Shown one piece after another: positions 8,560-21,200 of a DNA stretch of 46,444 bases (the stretch's first letter is position 1; each line of letters starts with the position of its first letter). The notes below the pieces were generated by a model that made no database searches, had not been told where the DNA came from, and saw nothing but the letters and a program-made list of their open reading frames with translations. Both the position numbers and the translations under genes were made by a program. The stretch lies in the NCBI GenBank assembly GCA_003695625.1, contig RFIB01000052.1, forward strand, positions 1 to 46,444, read 5' to 3'. This stretch comes from Acidobacteriota bacterium. Lineage in GTDB: Bacteria > Acidobacteriota > Polarisedimenticolia > J045.

Positions 8560-9231
8560 ATGGACGATCCGCCGGGGCCGGCGACGAAGCTCCGCTACGG
8601 CGCCGATTACCGCGAGAAGGTCGAGCTGGAGGACGGCAGCGAGGTCTGGCTGCGACCGATCCGCCCCGACGACAAGCAGCGGCTGCTCGAGGCGTTCTCG
8701 CGCCTGTCGGAGACGTCGCGCTACCAGCGGTTCCTGAGCGACCGCGTCACCCTCGACGAGAAGACGCTCCGGTTCCTGACCGAGGTCGACGGGTGGGATC
8801 ACGTCTGCCTCGTCGCGCTCGACGGTCCCGACGACGCGACCGCCCACGGACTCGCCTCGGCACGCTTCGTCCGCGACGCGGACGATCCGCAGGTCGCCGA
8901 GCCGGCCGTCACCGTGATCGACGAATGGCAGGGTCGCGGCCTCGGCCGGGCGCTGCTCGTGCGGCTGATGGAGGCGGCGCGCGAGCGCGGCGTGACGGTG
9001 TTCCGCTCGACGATCCTCGCGTCGAACGAGGCGATCCGGCGCCTGGTCGAGCAGGTCGGCGGCAAGGCGCGCGTGCAGCGCAAGGGTGAGCTGCTGATGA
9101 TCGAGTTCGACCTTCCGGAGGCGACGGAACTCGTGGCGGCCCGCTCGCCGGAGGATCAGTCGCGCTGGGACGCGATCCGCCGGTTCTTCAGGCTCGCGGC
9201 GAGCCGGATCCTGTCGGAACGCGCCGACTGA
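8560..9231 (+). CDS. GNAT family N-acetyltransferase, Pat-type (protein lysine acetyltransferase-like)
   Basis: LRPIRPDDKQRLLEAFSRLSETSRYQRFL matches the signature seen in Pat/PatZ-type GNAT domains. The acetyl-CoA loop WQGRGLGRAL is present. Confidence 0.7.
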   Translation: MDDPPGPATKLRYGADYREKVELEDGSEVWLRPIRPDDKQRLLEAFSRLSETSRYQRFLSDRVTLDEKTLRFLTEVDGWDHVCLVALDGPDDATAHGLASARFVRDADDPQVAEPAVTVIDEWQGRGLGRALLVRLMEAARERGVTVFRSTILASNEAIRRLVEQVGGKARVQRKGELLMIEFDLPEATELVAARSPEDQSRWDAIRRFFRLAASRILSERAD

Positions 9232-9518
9232 GCACCCGCGGGACGGCGGGCCGCACGGAGCGCGCGCCACGATCCGGCCACGTCGAGCGCCGCGGCCGAC
9301 GCGCGCTCGCTGCGGGGAAGCGCGCGATAGCGGTCGACGGCTCCGGGACCTCGCAGCAGTCGGGGCACGGCCGTCCGCGGCACGGCACGCGACGCTGCGG
9401 CGAGCTGCAGCGGCCGCGCGTCCGGCCGCGTCGGCGGTGCGCCGACCGCGACCCCGCACGGCACGACCAGCGCCAGGCAGGCGGCGGCGAGCATGCAGGT
9501 GCGGCGGGTGGCGGACAT
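9156..9518 (-). CDS. hypothetical small exported protein (weak call)
   Basis: ATG at 9518 lies 10 nt after GGAGG and opens a signal-like N-terminus (MSATRRTCMLAAACLALVVPCGVAVG). The rest is R/A-rich and low complexity, and the 3' end overlaps the GNAT gene by 76 nt. Confidence 0.3.
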   Translation of the reverse strand: MSATRRTCMLAAACLALVVPCGVAVGAPPTRPDARPLQLAAASRAVPRTAVPRLLRGPGAVDRYRALPRSERASAAALDVAGSWRALRAARRPAGAQSARSDRIRLAASLKNRRIASQRD

Positions 9519-9666
9519 CGCTGCGGGGCCTCCGGGGTCGCCGGTCGCATCCGGCACGACGTCCCTACGCAAGCTCCGTTCCAGCCGGTGGTCCGGACGG
9601 TGGCGGACCGCGGGAAACGTCGGCGGACCCGGTCCGCGACGGGACGGACCGGACGCTGTCCTGTTT

Positions 9667-9687
9667 CCGGACGCCGCTTGCGTCCGG
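9667..9687 (-). terminator. GC hairpin 14 nt downstream of the cupin stop (possible terminator without a U-tract)
   Basis: CCGGACGC (9667-9674) pairs with GCGTCCGG (9680-9687) around a 5-nt loop. No U-run follows on the minus-strand transcript. Confidence 0.25.
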
Positions 9688-9701
9688 ATCCGGGCCCGGC
9701 C

Positions 9702-10142
9702 TCAGACGCGGATGAAGGCCGCGATGCGCGGGTCGCGCCGCAGGCGCTCGAGGTCCGCCGGGCCGGGGCGCACCGGGCGGTCCCGCTCGCAGTCGACGAG
9801 GCACAGGAATCCGAGCGGCTCGTCGTCGGCACGGAACTGGTGCCACTCGTCCGGCCCGATCTCGAGCAGGTCGAACGGCGCGAGATCGACGATCCGGTCT
9901 CCGGCGAGCGCCCGGCCGCGCCCGCGCAGCACCATCACCGCGTGCGGATGCCGGTGCCGCTCGAGGGTCGAGTGGCCTCCCGGAGCGATCTCGAAATAGC
10001 GCAGCTGGGCACCGAGGCCCCCGGGGCCATCGAACAGGACCTGGCGGGTGATCCCGCGGAAGTGCGTTCCCGCCGGCTTGTAGTCGCGCAGCTCGACGCC
10101 GTCCCACCGGTAGTCGCCCAGACTGCGGCGATGGCGGCTCAT
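9702..10142 (-). CDS. cupin-domain protein (146 aa)
   Basis: The cupin core GGHSTLERHRHPHAVMVLRGRG...EWHQF (His-rich metal motifs) is present. ATG at 10142 overlaps the RLP stop (ATGA). Confidence 0.7.
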   Translation of the reverse strand: MSRHRRSLGDYRWDGVELRDYKPAGTHFRGITRQVLFDGPGGLGAQLRYFEIAPGGHSTLERHRHPHAVMVLRGRGRALAGDRIVDLAPFDLLEIGPDEWHQFRADDEPLGFLCLVDCERDRPVRPGPADLERLRRDPRIAAFIRV

Positions 10143-11251
10143 GGTCCGGTTCCTCCCTCGCCGGCGGATCGCGCCGCCTCGACGAACGCGCGCGTGCGCT
10201 CGACGAGCTCCTCCGGTCCGACGTGCAGGCTGCCGCCGATCAGCAGCATGACGTCGGGGCCGAGATCCCGGGCGAGTTCCGGCACGCGCTCGAGCGTCAT
10301 GCCGCCGGCCGGCACCGGCAGGGCGGGGCGCAGCGGCGGCCACGCGCCCCGCGCACCGTCGAGCAGACGCGTGACCTGGTCGTCGCTCCACGCGAACCGC
10401 CCGGCCACGTGAGGGTAGATCGTCGCGTCGGCCCCGAACAGCCGGAACAGTCTGCCGACGAGCAGCTCCGGCGCGATGGCCGACGATCCGGCGAGTGCCG
10501 GATGCGCGAGCACCGGTCCGTCCCACAGGCGGCGGGCGATGCGGTGGAACGCTGCCGGACCGATCAGCATCGGGCAGCACAGCACGGCGTCCGCGCCGGC
10601 CTGCCGCGCCTGGTCGAGCTGGTGCTCGATCGCGGCCCCGTCGCCGACGACGTGCGGAGCGTAGCGGGTCCGCCGGCCGGTCCGCTGCGCGACCCTGTCC
10701 AGCGCCGCGCAGACCGCGGCGACCCGCTCCGCGAACGGACAGAACGGATGATCGCCGAGTCCGTGGTCGTCCTTGACCAGATCGATGCCGCCGAGCGCGA
10801 GCTGCTCGGCCAGCGCCGCCAGCTCGTCGGGGCCCAGCCCGAGCGGCTTGAGGGCGCTGGCGGTCAGCGGGCCGTCCGGCACGTCGCACAGCGCGCGCAG
10901 GCCGGCGACGCCATGGCGCGGACCGCCGAATCCGATGCGAAGCTCCTCGGGAATCCCGACGTCGACGAGCCGCACGTCCCCGAGCAGCGACGCGTTGCCG
11001 AACAGCAGATTCAGCAGCCCCGCGGCGTCGAGGGCCGAGAGCGCCGCGTCGAACGCCAGCTCGACCGCGAACGCGCCGTCGGGCAGCGGTTCGATCGACA
11101 GGATCCGCGGGATGACCCGCTCGCGAATCCGCGGATCGCGGACCGCCGCGTCGGGCAGCTCGACGCTCTGCTCGAGCGCGAGCGCCTCGGCGCGGGCCTG
11201 CGCCTCCGCGGGGGCCACGTCGAGGCGATAGCGGGCGACGATCGGATCCAT
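10139..11251 (-). CDS. RuBisCO-like protein (form IV RLP), compact 370 aa
   Basis: LALGGIDLVKDDHGL aligns with the RuBisCO large-subunit GGxDxxKDDE motif. LKPLGLG, HPALAGS, VPAGGM and LLIGGSLH align with the KPKLG, His294 and phosphate-site motifs. The start is MDPIVARY at 11251; the upstream 388 codons of ORF 10139..12415 are a shadow frame. Confidence 0.8.
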   Translation of the reverse strand: MDPIVARYRLDVAPAEAQARAEALALEQSVELPDAAVRDPRIRERVIPRILSIEPLPDGAFAVELAFDAALSALDAAGLLNLLFGNASLLGDVRLVDVGIPEELRIGFGGPRHGVAGLRALCDVPDGPLTASALKPLGLGPDELAALAEQLALGGIDLVKDDHGLGDHPFCPFAERVAAVCAALDRVAQRTGRRTRYAPHVVGDGAAIEHQLDQARQAGADAVLCCPMLIGPAAFHRIARRLWDGPVLAHPALAGSSAIAPELLVGRLFRLFGADATIYPHVAGRFAWSDDQVTRLLDGARGAWPPLRPALPVPAGGMTLERVPELARDLGPDVMLLIGGSLHVGPEELVERTRAFVEAARSAGEGGTGP

Positions 11252-11256
11252 CGCGG

Positions 11257-12237
11257 TCAGCTCTCCCGCGGCGCGCCGCCGGGCGGGGACGCCACGAACA
11301 CCTGGACGACGTACAGCCGGCCTTCGTCGTCCTGCGCCGTGCCGATCCCCGTGCGTTCGACGGTCTCGTCGAGCAGGTTGCGGCGATGGCCGGGGCTGGC
11401 GAGCCATCCGGAGACCGCCTCCTCGACCGGGTCGAGCGTCCCTTCGATCAGCGCCAGATTCTCGGACGCGACGCGGTAGCCGATTCCCGCGCGCTGCAGG
11501 CGGTCGCCGAGCGTCGCGCCGTCCGCACCCCGATGGTCGAGCACGCCGCGCCGCGCCAGGTCGCGGGCATGCCCGCCGGCCACGGCGTCGAGCCGGGGGT
11601 CGCGTTGCAGGGCGGGCACACCACGCTGCCGGCGCGCGGCATCGACGGCGGCGGCGATCCCGTCCGCGAGCGCGGCCAGTTCCCGGTCGTCGAAGAGGCC
11701 GCCGGCGCGCGGGGTGAACGCGTCCGCCGGCGCCGCGGCGAGCGCGACGACGACGACGATCCAGCCGTCCGGGGCGCGCGCCGCGCCGACCGCGCCGGCC
11801 CGCGTCCGCGGCGAGAGCGCCAGCGCCCAGGTGTCCTCGAGGGCGCGCAGCAGGCGGAGCGACTCCGCGACCGGGTCGTCGACGTCGCGCAGCAGCAGGA
11901 CCTTCTCCACGTCGCGGCCGGCACGGGGAAGTCCGGCGAGCGCAAGCCAGCGTCCGGGGCGGGCCGGGTGGCGGAGCCGTTCGCGGTGGGCGAGCCGTGC
12001 GAGCTCGAGCGCGCGCTCCCGCGCGGCCGCGCGCAGCGTGTCGTCCGACCGCAGCGCCTCGACGCCCCGGTGCCGGCGCGCCGCATCGATCCGCTCGAGC
12101 ACGGCGCCCGCCAGGTCGTCGAGCGGGCGCGGCGGAATCGGCCGTGCCGGAGTGCCCGCGACGAACGCCACGAGCACCGCGGGCACCGCGAGGGCGCGGC
12201 GGGCGGCGAGCGCGGGGATCCGGCGCGGCCCGATCAT
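11257..12237 (-). CDS. exported tandem CAP/SCP (YkwD-like) domain protein
   Basis: The signal/anchor is MIGPRRIPALAARRALAVPAVLVAFVAG. The C-terminal domain carries the CAP signature GWLASPGHRRNLLD...TGIG. The N-terminal half is a second, more divergent CAP-like repeat. ATG at 12237 overlaps the upstream stop (ATGA). Confidence 0.7.
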   Translation of the reverse strand: MIGPRRIPALAARRALAVPAVLVAFVAGTPARPIPPRPLDDLAGAVLERIDAARRHRGVEALRSDDTLRAAARERALELARLAHRERLRHPARPGRWLALAGLPRAGRDVEKVLLLRDVDDPVAESLRLLRALEDTWALALSPRTRAGAVGAARAPDGWIVVVVALAAAPADAFTPRAGGLFDDRELAALADGIAAAVDAARRQRGVPALQRDPRLDAVAGGHARDLARRGVLDHRGADGATLGDRLQRAGIGYRVASENLALIEGTLDPVEEAVSGWLASPGHRRNLLDETVERTGIGTAQDDEGRLYVVQVFVASPPGGAPRES

Positions 12238-12647
12238 CGCGCGGCCTCGCGCAGCCGGGCCGTGGCGCGGTCGCGGTGTGCCGCGGCCGCCGCCTCGCGC
12301 GTTTGCGCCCGCCGCGTCCAGACGTGCACGTAGACCTGCAGCACGACGTAGAACAGGGCGGCGCCCGCGACGAGCGGGGCGAGCACCGCGGCGGCCTGCC
12401 GCCGGTCCCAGGCAAGCAGGATCAGCGCCAGGCCGGCCGCCGTGGCCAGCAGCGGCCGCACCAGCGACCAGCCGAACCGCCGGAGCCACAGTTCCTCGGC
12501 TCGGGCCAGCCAGCGGCGTCGTTCGGCTTCGAGCGCCGCCTCGATCAGCGGGGCGACCTCGGACCGCCGACCCGGCGGAGCGATCCCGGCGAGCGCCTCG
12601 ACAAGTCGGTCCTCCCGCCGGTCGGGCTTCCCGCGTGCCCCGCTCAT
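12234..12647 (-). CDS. hypothetical 2-TM membrane protein
   Basis: Two hydrophobic spans are present (LVRPLLATAAGLALILLAW, VLAPLVAGAALFYVVLQVYV). ATGA overlaps at both ends (12644-12647 and 12234-12237) tie it into the operon. Confidence 0.55.
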   Translation of the reverse strand: MSGARGKPDRREDRLVEALAGIAPPGRRSEVAPLIEAALEAERRRWLARAEELWLRRFGWSLVRPLLATAAGLALILLAWDRRQAAAVLAPLVAGAALFYVVLQVYVHVWTRRAQTREAAAAAHRDRATARLREAAR

Positions 12648-12772
12648 CGCCGGGTGCGGTCCCCGTCGCGCCGCCCCGGCGAGCCGCGAAGGATGCGCGC
12701 GAAGCAGAAGCCGACGAGTCCGAGAACCCCCGCCCAGGTGATCGCCATGAACGCCAGCGCCCCCGCGCTCAT
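12644..12772 (-). CDS. 42-aa single-TM protein resembling the MetS small subunit of NSS methionine/alanine importers
   Basis: MSAGALAFMAITWAGVLGLVGFCFARILRGSPGRRDGDRTRR forms the last 42 codons of shadow ORF 12644..14620. Its ATG at 12772 overlaps the NSS stop (ATGA), and its stop overlaps the next ATG. Confidence 0.55.
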   Translation of the reverse strand: MSAGALAFMAITWAGVLGLVGFCFARILRGSPGRRDGDRTRR

Positions 12773-14646
12773 CGTGCCGCCTCCGCCGGGCGTCGCCTCC
12801 GGCCCTTCCAGGTCGCCCAGATCATGAACAGGAACGCCGCCGTGATCAGCGCCATGATCGCGCGCGTGATCCAGATCGCCCACGCCCGGTAGCGCACTTC
12901 GACGGCGAGCGTGACCTCGTGAGGGCGCAGCGTCTCGCCGGTCGCGGGGTCGTAGCGCGGTCCGAGCAGGCGCACGTAGCGATTGAGTCGCTCGAGGCCG
13001 ATCTCGTCGAGCACGTCGGGTTGCGTGCCGATCCGGTCGACGCCGATCGGGGAGGACGGATGGATCACGATCTCGAACCAGATCGGGATGTCCCGGTGCC
13101 GGCGCTCGACGGCCGCGCGCAGCCCGGCCTCGATCCGCTCGAGTTCCCGTGCCGCATCGCTGCCTTCGGGGGGGCGTTCGAGCCGGAAGCGGCCCGCGAA
13201 GCCCTTCACGTTGTCGAATCCGGCATGGATCCGCGGTGCGGGAATCAGCCGGTCGTGGATGATCGCGTCGAAGAACCAGGCGCCGAAGATCGCGAACAGG
13301 ACGAGGGGCGTGACGACGCGCATCACCCAGCGGTAGACGCCCGGGACACGGATCTCGGCGCCGCGGTGCATCTCCTTCCAGCCGCGATCGATGCCGAAGA
13401 TCCACGAGAAGATCACGACCTCGATCGTCGTGAACAGCACGAGGCCGATCGTCCCCGCCCAGAAGTCCATCTCGTCGAGAGCGCCGTAGCGGTAGTACAG
13501 GACGATCGGCACGCTGGCCAGCGCCCATACGACACCGAGCACCGCGGCCGAGACGGCCCGCGTCATGCGCATCTCGTCCTGGAAGAACGCCATCACCGGT
13601 TGCGCCACGGCGACCGAGGACGTGAACGCGGCGAAGAACAGCAGCAGGAACCACATGCTGCCGAACAGGTGCACACCGCCCATGCCGCGGAAGATCTCCG
13701 GCATCGAGACCATCCCGATCCGGAACGTCCCGCCGGCTGCGATCTCGGCGATGCGGTCCGGGCCGAAGTAGAGCGCCGCCGCCGGAATCGCGATCATGCT
13801 GCCGAACACGACCTCGACCAGCTCGTTGATCGACGCCGCCGTCAGGCCGGTCAGGACGACGTCGTCGTTCTCGCGCACGTACGAGCCGAAGCACTCGAGC
13901 GCGCCGTAGCCGATGGTCAGCGTGAAGAAGATCTGGCCCGCGGCCGCCATCCACACCTGCGGATCGGACAGCGCGGCGAAGTCCGGCCGCCACAGGAACT
14001 CGAGCCCGGCGAACGCCCCGGCTCCCTGGCCGAGGGTCCACGTGCCGAGCACGATGCAGAACAGGACCAGGATCGGGATCGCGACCTTGGCGAGCAGCTC
14101 GATCCCGCGACTCACGCCGCGCCAGAGCACCCAGACGTTGAGCGCCAGCGCGATGACGAGGAACAGCGCCGCGGTCCCCAGGCCGACGAAGTAGTTCTGG
14201 GTCGGCGCGTTGCCGAGAAACTCCTCGAAGAACACGCCGAGATCGACCGCGCGGTCCTCGTAGCGGCCGGTCAGCGAGAACCACGAGTACGCCAGACACC
14301 AGGCCTCGATATACGTGTAGTAGATCACGAAGACCAGCGGCAGCGCGACGCCGATCACGCCGACGTACTTGCCCCACGGGCGTCCCGTCATCACGTCGAA
14401 CATCCCCGGCGTGGTGCCATGGCCCGCGCGGCCCCCGATCCGTCCGACGGTCCATGCGATCCACATCGCCGGCAGCCCGAGCAGCAGCAGCGAGAGCACG
14501 TAGGGGATCATGAACGCGCCGCCGCCGTGATTGGCGGCCTGCCCGGGAAAGCGCAGCAGATTGCCGATGCCGACCGCGCTGCCCGCGGCGGCGAGGATCA
14601 CCCCGATCCGCGAGCCCCACTGTTCACGTCCACCCGCACCGCTCAC
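12769..14646 (-). CDS. sodium-dependent transporter, neurotransmitter:sodium symporter (NSS/SNF) family
   Basis: The TM1 signature is AAAGSAVGIGNLLRFP. About 12 TM spans are visible. GTG at 14646 is preceded by GGGAGGA. A ~125-aa hydrophilic insert sits between the last two TM spans. Confidence 0.85.
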   Translation of the reverse strand: MSGAGGREQWGSRIGVILAAAGSAVGIGNLLRFPGQAANHGGGAFMIPYVLSLLLLGLPAMWIAWTVGRIGGRAGHGTTPGMFDVMTGRPWGKYVGVIGVALPLVFVIYYTYIEAWCLAYSWFSLTGRYEDRAVDLGVFFEEFLGNAPTQNYFVGLGTAALFLVIALALNVWVLWRGVSRGIELLAKVAIPILVLFCIVLGTWTLGQGAGAFAGLEFLWRPDFAALSDPQVWMAAAGQIFFTLTIGYGALECFGSYVRENDDVVLTGLTAASINELVEVVFGSMIAIPAAALYFGPDRIAEIAAGGTFRIGMVSMPEIFRGMGGVHLFGSMWFLLLFFAAFTSSVAVAQPVMAFFQDEMRMTRAVSAAVLGVVWALASVPIVLYYRYGALDEMDFWAGTIGLVLFTTIEVVIFSWIFGIDRGWKEMHRGAEIRVPGVYRWVMRVVTPLVLFAIFGAWFFDAIIHDRLIPAPRIHAGFDNVKGFAGRFRLERPPEGSDAARELERIEAGLRAAVERRHRDIPIWFEIVIHPSSPIGVDRIGTQPDVLDEIGLERLNRYVRLLGPRYDPATGETLRPHEVTLAVEVRYRAWAIWITRAIMALITAAFLFMIWATWKGRRRRPAEAAR

Positions 14647-14693
14647 CCGTCACGTCCTCCCTGCCGCGGTCCATCGCCGAAGTCTCCGGGAAT

Positions 14694-15440
14694 TCAGGAC
14701 AGATGATCCCCGATCGGTTCCGCGCGCGCGATCGCGTCCCTGATCTCCCGTACCGCGTTCTCGAGGCCGATCAGCACCGCCCGGGCGATGATGCTGTGGC
14801 CGATGTTCAGCTCGACGACCTCGGGGATCTCCGCGATCGGGGTCACGTTGCGGACGGTCAGCCCGTGACCGGCCGCCACGGCGAGGCCCGCCTCGGACGC
14901 CCGGGTCGCGGCTGCGACGAGGGCGTCGTAGGCCTCCGCCTGCTCGGACGCCGTCGTCGCGATGCTGTAGGCGTTCGTGTTCAGCTCGATCATCGCCACG
15001 CCGATGTCGGCGGCCGCGTCGACCTGGGCCGGGACCGGGTCGATGAACAGGCTGCTCGCAATGCGCGAGCGGCGCAGGGCGGCAACATGCCTGGCGAGGG
15101 TGCGGCGATGGCGTGCCGCGTCGATGCCCCCTTCGGTCGTGACCTCGCCGGGACGCTCAGGGACGAGCGTCACGAGATCGGGCCGCACGCGACGCGCGAT
15201 CGACAGCATCTCCTCCGTCGCCGCCATCTCGACGTTGAGGCGTGTCGTGACGACGCGCCGCAGGCGATGCAGGTCCTCGTCCTGGATATGCCGGCGATCG
15301 CCGCGCAGGTGGCACGTGATGCCGTCGGCACCGGCAAGGTCGCAGAGCACCGCGGCGGCGACGGGGTCCGGTTCGGCCGCCCGCCGCGCCTGGCGCACGG
15401 TGGCGACGTGGTCGATGTTCACCGAAAGGCTGGCCGACAT
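14694..15440 (-). CDS. pdxJ: pyridoxine 5'-phosphate synthase
   Basis: LSVNIDHVATVRQAR, ITCHLRGDRRHI and the full-length (248 aa) layout match PdxJ. SD GAGGAGGA lies upstream. Confidence 0.9.
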   Translation of the reverse strand: MSASLSVNIDHVATVRQARRAAEPDPVAAAVLCDLAGADGITCHLRGDRRHIQDEDLHRLRRVVTTRLNVEMAATEEMLSIARRVRPDLVTLVPERPGEVTTEGGIDAARHRRTLARHVAALRRSRIASSLFIDPVPAQVDAAADIGVAMIELNTNAYSIATTASEQAEAYDALVAAATRASEAGLAVAAGHGLTVRNVTPIAEIPEVVELNIGHSIIARAVLIGLENAVREIRDAIARAEPIGDHLS

Positions 15441-15467
15441 GACGACCGGTCCTCCTCGACGGCACGC

Positions 15468-21200
<5,733 letters not shown>

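Follow-up and report, generated by a model that had tools for sequence, protein, structure and literature searches.

The window, a 46,444-nucleotide stretch of acidobacterial DNA, carries six closely linked minus-strand genes coding for an NSS transporter, a very small protein, a protein with two predicted transmembrane helices (2TM protein), a CAP-domain protein, a RuBisCO-like protein (RLP), and a cupin (Table 1), and the region appears to make up the 3' end of a long string of co-directional genes. Four of the junctions are ATGA start/stop overlaps (12769-12772, 12644-12647, 12234-12237, and 10139-10142) and the CAP stop codon is separated from the RLP ATG by 5 nt (CCGCG), all exactly as located in the original prediction. 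GC3 ranges from 0.88 to 0.92 in the six frames (0.88 in the 42-codon ORF), as against 0.48–0.65 for GC2, which is a coding signature for DNA of 72% GC; the Pfam families matched within the set are SNF, CAP, RuBisCO_large, and Cupin_2.

Table 1. Genes and other features at the six-gene locus.
Feature	Position	Strand	Description
NSS gene	12769-14646	minus	GTG start, GGAGGA 8 nt upstream
42-codon ORF	12644-12772	minus	single-TM small subunit of NSS
2TM protein, 137 aa	12234-12647	minus	two predicted TM helices
CAP protein, 326 aa	11257-12237	minus	exported tandem CAP/SCP-domain protein
RLP, 370 aa	10139-11251	minus	form IV RuBisCO-like protein
Cupin, 146 aa	9702-10142	minus	predicted methylsulfurylase
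pdxJ (pyridoxine 5'-phosphate synthase)	14694-15440	minus	upstream neighbour of NSS
Two GC-rich hairpins	9630-9700	minus	directly 3' of cupin stop

Overlaps of 4 nt are ordinary junctions both in this lineage, where folP and cdaA likewise overlap by 4 nt (L171 and L174), and in RLP/cupin pairs, so that the ATGA chain indicates co-transcription and nothing unusual; judged from the overlaps, co-transcription and translational coupling of the six genes are likely. The transcription unit is probably larger still, with pdxJ on the same transcript, since the 47 nt between the pdxJ stop and the NSS start contain no stable hairpin, 27 nt separate pdxJ from the end of the gene before it, which codes for a carboxylase of 1934 aa, and the minus strand is co-directional over the whole interval between about 29.3 and 9.7 kb. 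The hairpins that follow the cupin gene (minimum free energy -40.1 kcal/mol, z-score -2.4 against shuffles) are a possible 3' end of the transcript; they have no U-tract, and a consensus terminator scan gave no match there.

The NSS protein is 625 aa long, matches Pfam SNF (2.4e-50), and aligns with LeuT structures over residues 7–459 (1e-121, 47% identity), a region spanning TM1–TM11 of the Aquifex aeolicus protein, with TM12 aligning weakly at residues 588–620. The residues that we take to be the Na1 and Na2 ligands (A22, N27, T254, N286, A351, T354, and S355) are all kept, as are most of those that presumably line the substrate pocket, and a LeuT-like Na+-coupled symporter is predicted, with neutral amino acids as its probable substrate class. 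The differences from LeuT are five pocket substitutions (L25I, V104F, S256T, F259Y, and I359V), an insert of ~125 aa between TM11 and TM12, and the presence of accessory subunits.

The 42-aa ORF is a real and widespread single-helix partner of NSS transporters. A profile built from five homologues, with the conserved motif FM.l.W..v..L..FCF, places such an ORF directly 3' of the NSS gene in 32 of 83 NSS loci, and three relatives (L095, L117, and L147) have it as an N-terminal fusion to the NSS. It had been described as MetS-like; the co-occurrence and fusions support its partnership with the NSS, and the arrangement is like that of MetPS of Corynebacterium glutamicum, in which an NSS permease is also followed by a tiny single-TM ORF, but the NCBIfam model MetS_like_NSS gives no match to it. 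The locus differs from MetPS further in that the permease is of the long type carrying the TM11–TM12 insert, and in having the 2TM protein as a third membrane component together with an associated CAP protein.

The 2TM protein, whose helices were assigned by inspection, has no family match in Pfam or NCBIfam and matches only 22 representative clusters among 1.84 billion proteins. Its gene follows the small ORF in all long-type NSS loci seen (L001, L086-L093, and L169-L174), which suggests an uncharacterised accessory of the long-type NSS. The CAP protein has a signal-peptide-like N-terminus (by inspection) and, like bacterial secreted proteins of the CAP/SCP/YkwD type, a domain matching Pfam CAP (PF00188; 5.2e-22), which in this case is confined to the C-terminal part (residues 197–314); the YkwD subfamily domain is matched too, though below cut-off, and the protein falls below the cut-offs for DalA and YkwD. 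The tandem architecture claimed for it is borne out by alignment of the N-terminal to the C-terminal half (34% identity, E 3e-7), and this duplication, with a degenerate first domain, sets it apart from those relatives. It evolves fast, with 56% identity where the NSS has 85%, and an orthologue lies near the NSS block, though unjoined, in L172 and L174; the CAP gene appears to be an older neighbour of that block.

On alignment scores the RLP is a member of the DeepYkr/RrRLP clade of form IV, narrowing the form IV assignment of the original prediction to the R. rubrum type: its best PDB hit, 3qfw, scores 308 bits (1e-90), and no YkrW- or Photo-type RLP exceeds 151 bits. As MtnW, form III, or OiaX it is below every NCBIfam cut-off. 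It has the K135 and K160-D-D-H163-G motifs that are invariant in the clade, and the protein is a predicted 5-methylthioribulose-1-P 1,3-isomerase by homology, being 49% identical to the R. palustris RLP, for which this activity and the role of the neighbouring cupin were demonstrated in vivo and in vitro (PMC5893883). The cupin is similarly a predicted 1-methylthio-D-xylulose-5-P methylsulfurylase: the suggested kinship with the RLP-partner cupin of R. rubrum proves close, with 58% identity (E 6.8e-47) to Rru_A2000 (PDB 3jzv), the MTXu-5P sulfurylase (PMC4958253), and ERHxHxH and WHQF motifs common to both in the alignment. The product of the cupin reaction is 1-deoxyxylulose-5-P (DXP; PMC5893883).

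The pairing of RLP and cupin genes and their conserved organisation are already in the literature (PMC4958253, PMC5893883). A scan of GTDB species gave at least 594 RLP matches, of which 80 were fetched, and in the 85 RLP loci analysed a cupin adjoins the RLP in 77; the junction is an overlap of exactly 4 nt in 32 retrieved loci, the commonest junction in the family. The remaining neighbours are heterogeneous. The pairs of R. rubrum and R. palustris (RLPs Rru_A1998 and RPA2169; cupins Rru_A2000 and RPA2170) belong to the same RLP clade and cupin family and have the same RLP-then-cupin order and tight coupling, and the pair described here differs in being joined on, in an acidobacterium, behind a CAP gene and a block of transporter genes. 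In agreement with the original prediction, no mtnP, mtnA, or mtnK family member occurs among the 22 other ORFs of the window. MtnP and MtnA are required for making the RLP substrate, but the absence of their genes here says little because R. rubrum and R. palustris, too, have mtnP and mtnA at other genomic loci, far from the RLP (PMC4958253, PMC5893883).

The conservation that had been anticipated in relatives is seen in one clade, with the six-gene order recurring in six independent contigs (the window, L001, L086, L087, L169, and L173) with junctions from an 11 nt overlap to an 8 nt gap. The six RLP-linked loci form a single clade in an NJ tree of NSS proteins, as do five of them in the RLP tree (also NJ, both without bootstrap), from which L173 was omitted because its sequence ends at the RLP start; branching is largely congruent, fitting one insertion followed by vertical inheritance. 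The transporter genes have a broader distribution. pdxJ lies directly upstream of the NSS gene in L001, L088, L169, L171, L172, L173, and L174, and long-type loci without the RLP-cupin pair include pdxJ-NSS-small ORF-2TM (L171, L172, and L174) and NSS-small ORF-2TM (L090-L092, counted irrespective of pdxJ). The genes for the NSS, its small subunit, and the 2TM protein, with pdxJ before them, seem to be an older block ending a housekeeping gene string, and this block occurs in sister lineages without the RLP-cupin pair.

We favour, with some reserve, the view that two separately conserved modules have been placed side by side in one acidobacterial lineage, a reading that draws on the observed gene structure, family and clade assignments, modularity, and distribution. 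The first would be an uptake module made up of a LeuT-like symporter with a TM11–TM12 loop domain, its single-helix subunit, and a 2TM accessory. The second would be the enzyme pair of the MTA-isoprenoid shunt, with activities predicted at about 50–58% identity, in which the DeepYkr RLP would convert 5-methylthioribulose-1-P to 1-methylthioxylulose-5-P, and the cupin would use this and a thiol such as glutathione to yield 1-deoxyxylulose-5-P and a methanethiol adduct. In one sublineage the RLP-cupin pair would have been inserted a single time, 3' of the CAP gene, and inherited since then, and the six-gene locus would be a context variant of known systems. A point against the two-module view is that the CAP-to-RLP junction stays between a 1 nt overlap and a 5 nt gap while the RLP has diverged to 50%, which could reflect selection for co-expression instead of inertia. 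Flanking genes for a GNAT protein and an O-methyltransferase are likewise kept in L001, L086, and L087, so that conserved synteny is not peculiar to the six-gene set and is ambiguous either way.

A shared methionine or sulfur function of the two modules is plausible and is required by no evidence. Methionine is carried by both LeuT-type and MetPS transporters, and a functional link between the NSS and sulfur salvage is thus not far-fetched. In its full form, this is the single sulfur-amino-acid uptake and salvage unit originally proposed, in which methionine or a methylthio compound would enter through the NSS with help at the membrane and periplasm from the CAP and 2TM proteins, the RLP and cupin would salvage MTA sulfur, and all would be co-regulated by methionine/SAM demand. 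We regard this as rather unlikely. It accords with an RLP and cupin of methionine-salvage type, with a LeuT-like transporter whose two-subunit form resembles MetPS, a methionine/alanine importer (PMC3219685, citing Trotschel 2008), and with a gene order and tight junctions that the six contigs retain even where identity falls to 50% in the RLP and 61% in the NSS. The association is nevertheless restricted to one clade: NSS, 2TM, and CAP genes are absent from the 85 RLP loci except L001 and L009, which are one acidobacterial contig retrieved twice, and six long-type NSS loci lack the RLP-cupin pair. Moreover, the NSS gene is tied to pdxJ and a housekeeping string, not to sulfur genes, CAP proteins have no known role in sulfur metabolism, the MetS model does not recognise the small ORF, and an Rfam search found no SAM or other riboswitch in the window.

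It is improbable that the RLP and cupin have drifted in substrate, acting on an imported sugar-phosphate precursor or another 5-deoxy or 5-thio pentulose phosphate in the catabolism of what the transporter and CAP module would bring in. The RLP is just about 47–50% identical to characterised members, RLP clades differ in chemistry (the window RLP being below the NCBIfam cut-offs for MtnW and OiaX), and there are long branches inside the acidobacterial RLP clade. However, about 50% is a normal spread among equivalent DeepYkr RLPs, those of R. rubrum and R. palustris being just 53% identical to each other (PMC5893883), and the intact catalytic motifs of the RLP, the close match and kept motifs of the cupin, and an NSS that imports amino acids, not sugar phosphates, all argue against such a drift.

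A link through DXP, coupling the recycling of MTA to the supply of precursors for vitamin B6 and isoprenoids, would have the RLP-cupin pair make the compound that PdxJ consumes. PdxJ uses DXP, as is established biochemistry, and all RLP-linked loci that reach far enough (L001, L169, and L173) contain pdxJ, which stands in the same string four genes upstream across the short hairpin-free gap. We consider this the most improbable of the readings, as the 80 other RLP loci have no pdxJ close to the RLP, the adjacency of pdxJ to the NSS gene is older than the RLP-cupin pair and exists without that pair in L171, L172, and L174, and the proximity is most simply read as coincidence.

The six-gene arrangement represents known kinds in a variant context, with the enzyme pair already known and the transporter module (insert, small subunit, 2TM protein and CAP neighbor) the less charted part. 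Coordinates, overlaps and gap read exactly as described in the original prediction, with ATGA overlaps at 12769-72, 12644-47, 12234-37 and 10139-42, a 5-nt gap between the CAP gene and that of the RuBisCO-like protein (RLP), and a GC3 of 0.88–0.92 in all six frames. The cupin gene lies directly downstream of the RLP gene with a 4-nt overlap, which is also the junction seen most often between RLP and cupin genes elsewhere (32 retrieved loci), and overlaps of the same kind occur between folP and cdaA, unrelated housekeeping genes of the same lineage; the overlap chain by itself is therefore nothing unusual.

Genes of the cluster and the two genes upstream of it
Feature	Coordinates	Strand	Remarks
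NSS	12769-14646	-	GTG start; GGAGGA 8 nt upstream
Small ORF, 42 codons	12644-12772	-	no Pfam match
2TM protein, 137 aa, two hydrophobic helices	12234-12647	-	no Pfam match
CAP protein, 326 aa	11257-12237	-	Pfam CAP
RLP, 370 aa	10139-11251	-	Pfam RuBisCO_large
Cupin, 146 aa	9702-10142	-	Pfam Cupin_2
pdxJ	14694-15440	-	stop 47 nt upstream of NSS
Single-chain carboxylase, 1934 aa	15468-21272	-	stop 27 nt upstream of pdxJ

The RLP contains the RuBisCO catalytic domain (Pfam PF00016, 1.4e-21) and its closest solved structure is 3qfw (1e-90, 308 bits), compared with no more than 151 bits for the MtnW-type structures 4nas and 2oek, and 91 and 81 bits for the Photo-type 2qyg and 1ykw. Identity between the window RLP and the RLP cluster of R. 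palustris is 49%, and NCBI gives the name RLP_RrRLP to one relative. The residues K135 (the lysine of ALKP.GL), K160, D161, D162, H163 and G164 are invariant in 13 clade members including R. palustris, with the motif K-D-D-H-G standing where RuBisCO has K-D-D-E. By structure-match scores, identity, NCBIfam cut-offs and motifs, the RLP belongs to the DeepYkr/RrRLP clade of form IV proteins, and it is predicted to be a 5-methylthioribulose-1-phosphate (MTRu-1P) 1,3-isomerase. The DeepYkr RLP Rru_A1998 of R. rubrum isomerizes this compound (PMC4958253). Identity as a true RuBisCO or an MtnW enolase was rejected, the RLP scoring well short of the MtnW, form III RuBisCO and OiaX cut-offs of NCBIfam.

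The cupin (Pfam Cupin_2, 1.1e-9) is closest to the solved structure 3jzv, 'Rru_A2000' (E 6.8e-47, 58% identity over 135 residues), matches 3ibm and 3kgz at 1e-38 to 1e-42, and has ERHxHxH and WHQF motifs in common with Rru_A2000. It is predicted to be a 1-methylthioxylulose-5-phosphate (MTXu-5P) methylsulfurylase of the Rru_A2000 family, which would release the methylthio group in a thiol-dependent manner, and the comparison with the R. rubrum enzyme suggested in the original prediction thus comes out in its favor. Rru_A2000 converts MTXu-5P to 1-deoxyxylulose-5-phosphate (DXP) and methanethiol (PMC4958253), and the adjacent RPA2169 and RPA2170 of R. palustris, which share no more than 53% and 56% identity with their R. 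rubrum counterparts, catalyze the same two reactions in vivo and in vitro (PMC5893883); RLP and cupin genes are similarly organized in Meiothermus, Nitrococcus and Halorhodospira (PMC4958253). Belonging to the same RLP clade and cupin family as these R. rubrum and R. palustris proteins, the RLP–cupin half of the cluster adds one more case to a pair already in the literature, and would extend a characterized methionine-salvage route to Acidobacteriota. The RLP motifs retrieved at least 594 homologues in a scan of GTDB species, and we regard the pair as a very widespread, portable two-gene cassette (present in at least that number of species), of value for annotation and not as new biology.

A complete methylthioadenosine (MTA)–isoprenoid shunt also includes MtnP (or MtnN plus MtnK) and MtnA to supply MTRu-1P, and an O-acetylhomoserine sulfhydrylase to recapture methanethiol. 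None of the families PNP_UDP_1, IF-2B and APH is among the top families of the 22 other ORFs in the 46-kb window; the lack of mtnP and mtnA there says little, since both are unlinked to the RLP gene in the R. rubrum and R. palustris genomes (PMC4958253, PMC5893883).

Among 85 RLP loci, the cupin gene adjoins the RLP gene in 77. DeepYkr-type RLP loci with no detectable cupin nearby (L015, L034, L040, L052, L056, L069, L074 and L081) are mostly from Eremiobacterota/Vulcanimicrobiota and Verrucomicrobiota/Opitutales; L034 stops at the RLP gene and the remainder have 1.4–10 kb of downstream sequence, and the RLP of these loci may work without a cupin or with an unlinked one. Apart from the partner gene, the neighbors of RLP–cupin are heterogeneous. 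Clustering of the ORFs in the 6 kb around the RLP gene at 80 loci gave recurrent clusters that are heterogeneous and lineage-bound, none in more than 18 loci, which we take to mean that the pair has no conserved third partner; the output is muddied by antisense shadow ORFs, and the clusters were identified by inspection (ABC ATPase, SDR, enoyl-CoA hydratase, 2-hydroxyacid dehydrogenase and ABC-2 permease). On two unrelated contigs a Xan_ur_permease gene (a nucleobase permease family) is found upstream of RLP–cupin (L002 2562-3983, L005 145-1557), immediately so in L005 and with a 1300-aa uncharacterized protein between in L002/L003; its position may have to do with the adenine that MTA breakdown sets free.

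The NSS protein (Pfam SNF, 2.4e-50) is 47% identical to LeuT over TM1–TM11 (E 1e-121), with conservation of all Na1/Na2 ligands (A22, N27, T254, N286, A351, T354 and S355) and five conservative changes in the substrate pocket. It belongs to the LeuT-type Na+:amino-acid symporter family. An insert of ~125 residues (aa ~460–588) separates TM11 from TM12 and would face the periplasm if the LeuT topology applies. The same long architecture is seen in thousands of relatives of 620–640 aa, including those of Acidobacteriota, Polyangiaceae and Ignavibacteriae, and a metagenome scan with the NSS alignment recovered mostly short-type NSS at 45–50% identity and only six of these long-type loci. An exact look-up of the window's own NSS in the contig index gave no entry.

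Using a profile of the 42-aa ORF, a homologue was found directly 3' of the NSS gene in 32 of 83 NSS loci, and at three loci (L095 742-2418, L117 7839-9554 and L147 7830-9539) its helix is fused in frame to the permease N-terminus. These natural fusions support a physical partnership of the two proteins and, together with the adjacency, predict that the small ORF encodes a real subunit; the three NSS genes with the fusion are more distant ones, and the single-TM subunit fused in them carries the motif W..v..L..FCF. In the passage of PMC3219685 that cites Trotschel 2008, MetPS is described as a two-subunit NSS importer of methionine and alanine. The window resembles that system in having an NSS gene followed, with a 4-nt overlap, by a tiny single-TM ORF, but differs in that the small ORF has no NCBIfam MetS match. 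Searches of NCBIfam at E up to 10 gave no match for either the small ORF or the 2TM protein, and the MetS model NF033493 gave one faint match among ten small-ORF relatives (E 0.058; 13 bits, where the cut-off is 25). The MetS-like subunit originally proposed is thus a genuine adjoining single-TM partner, but not one that the MetS model recognizes. At all long-type NSS loci examined, the 2TM gene comes directly after the small ORF; its family is tiny, a search of 1.84 billion proteins yielding 22 representative clusters. The transporter side is the less expected result, comprising a large LeuT-like subfamily with an insert, a single-helix subunit and a dedicated 2TM partner; if these are true accessory subunits, they would widen the precedent that MetPS sets for bacterial NSS transporters of several subunits.

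The CAP protein was correctly described at the outset as a tandem: its C-terminal domain (PF00188, 5.2e-22) spans residues 197–314, and the N-terminal half aligns to it (E 3e-7, 34% identity). A word-indexed homologue search returned only 12 matches because the protein evolves fast. DalA- and YkwD-type identities were rejected, the protein being below both cut-offs. Orthologous tandem-CAP genes are found near the NSS block in L172 (through a profile built from syntenic copies) and L174 (from the Pfam gene table), beyond an antisense aminotransferase gene, and an exported tandem-CAP protein is a recurring neighbor of long-type NSS in Acidobacteriota. The antisense gene (Aminotran_1_2) is situated 3' of the 2TM gene at loci that lack RLP–cupin (L090 2943-3857, L172 11098-12288 and L174 10481-11671, all minus strand; the L090 gene is Kbl/BioF-like by inspection), separates 2TM from CAP in L172 and L174, and is missing from the RLP-containing clade.

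The transcription unit is probably longer than six genes. From ~29.3 kb the minus strand of the window is co-directional through tilS, ftsH, folP, cdaA, ybbR, glmM, the carboxylase gene and pdxJ, and the 47-nt pdxJ–NSS gap is without stable structure. Directly 3' of the cupin stop codon is a pair of GC-rich hairpins with stems of 9 and 8 bp (window 9630-9700, minus strand; -40 kcal/mol, z-score -2.4). They have no U-tract and may mark the transcript 3' end, by terminating transcription or by stabilizing the mRNA at its 3' end. A promoter and terminator scan of 9000-15600 gave no match and is uninformative in DNA of 72% GC, and an Rfam search of the whole window reported one tRNA only and no riboswitch.

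The order NSS–small ORF–2TM–CAP–RLP–cupin recurs in loci L001, L086, L087, L169/L170 and L173, the last of which breaks off just after the RLP start (MDPILATYRLDV...); L089, which ends inside the CAP gene, is probably a further case. MAGs with this order include GCA_024276295.1 and GCA_964586535.1. Among these loci the lowest identities are 61% for NSS and 50% for RLP, and the junctions range from an 11-nt overlap to an 8-nt gap. The four upstream genes are found in only one of the 85 RLP loci, an acidobacterial MAG with an RLP 73% identical, and neighbor-joining trees of RLP and of NSS each group the RLP-linked loci in one clade, with largely congruent branching; the co-occurrence of RLP, cupin, CAP and NSS, for which the original prediction proposed a search, is confined to one clade among the retrieved loci. 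NSS–small ORF–2TM is present without RLP–cupin in L090, L091, L092, L171, L172 and L174; sister genomes with an NSS block of this kind include CP070706.1, GCA_003696075.1 and GCA_030949355.1. The pdxJ gene is directly upstream of the long-type NSS gene in L001, L088, L169 and L171–L174, and this adjacency holds in every acidobacterial locus extending far enough, with or without RLP–cupin; the string tilS-ftsH-folP-cdaA-ybbR-glmM precedes pdxJ in L171 and L174 as in the window.

The simplest history is one of insertion and vertical inheritance. An ancestral housekeeping string would have ended in pdxJ–NSS–small ORF–2TM with a CAP gene close by, a single insertion in one sublineage would have put the portable RLP–cupin cassette behind the CAP gene, and the resulting arrangement would have been inherited vertically. 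The best-supported reading, and the one we consider probable, is that of two modules that are co-transcribed yet mechanistically independent. The first would consist of an importer of neutral amino acids coupled to Na+, its accessory subunits in the membrane and the exported CAP protein, and the second would be the MTA–isoprenoid shunt pair, taking MTRu-1P to DXP and a methanethiol adduct. Present evidence favors a lineage-specific juxtaposition of the transporter and RLP–cupin.

The original prediction is supported in part: its family calls are right, but its single undescribed system, an integrated unit for methionine uptake and salvage, is not established and seems unlikely: although the tight CAP–RLP junction is kept through deep divergence, and methionine is carried by LeuT-type and MetPS transporters, no evidence requires such a unit, the association does not recur outside the clade, the window has no riboswitch, and downstream synteny (GNAT, O-methyltransferase) is equally well conserved. 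A functional link between transporter and RLP–cupin, if there is one, would illustrate how import of a nutrient can be hard-wired to its salvage. A fuller version, which we think decidedly improbable, has the shunt enzymes recruited in one acidobacterial clade into a translationally coupled operon that lies downstream of pdxJ and also encodes a LeuT-type importer of three components and a tandem-CAP protein of the periplasm. Uptake of methionine or methylthio compounds, recycling of the sulfur of MTA and the supply of DXP to PLP and isoprenoids would then be expressed together, and the CAP and 2TM proteins would be hitherto unrecognized NSS accessory factors. There is only a slight chance that the acidobacterial RLP clade has shifted to another substrate, its motifs being intact. 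PdxJ consumes DXP, the product of the cupin reaction, but a pathway in which RLP–cupin feeds PdxJ is barely credible, as the pdxJ–NSS adjacency is older than the arrival of RLP–cupin.

Some further features are seen at the flanks of these loci. The carboxylase upstream of pdxJ has biotin carboxylase, biotinyl and carboxyltransferase domains, in the architecture of a eukaryote-like fused acyl-CoA carboxylase; an ACC_central domain is seen in the L088 homologue. Downstream, 183 nt 3' of the cupin gene, is a small ORF (9156-9518, minus strand) with a signal-peptide-like N-terminus, 52% identical over 113 aa to an ORF at the same position in L001 and absent from L086 and L087, the 3' end of which overlaps the convergent GNAT gene (8560-9231) tail to tail. 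The L088 contig ends after its 2TM gene in ~360 nt of repeats (12460-12820), the translation of which repeats an ARPRAGF/PPAGRV-like motif.
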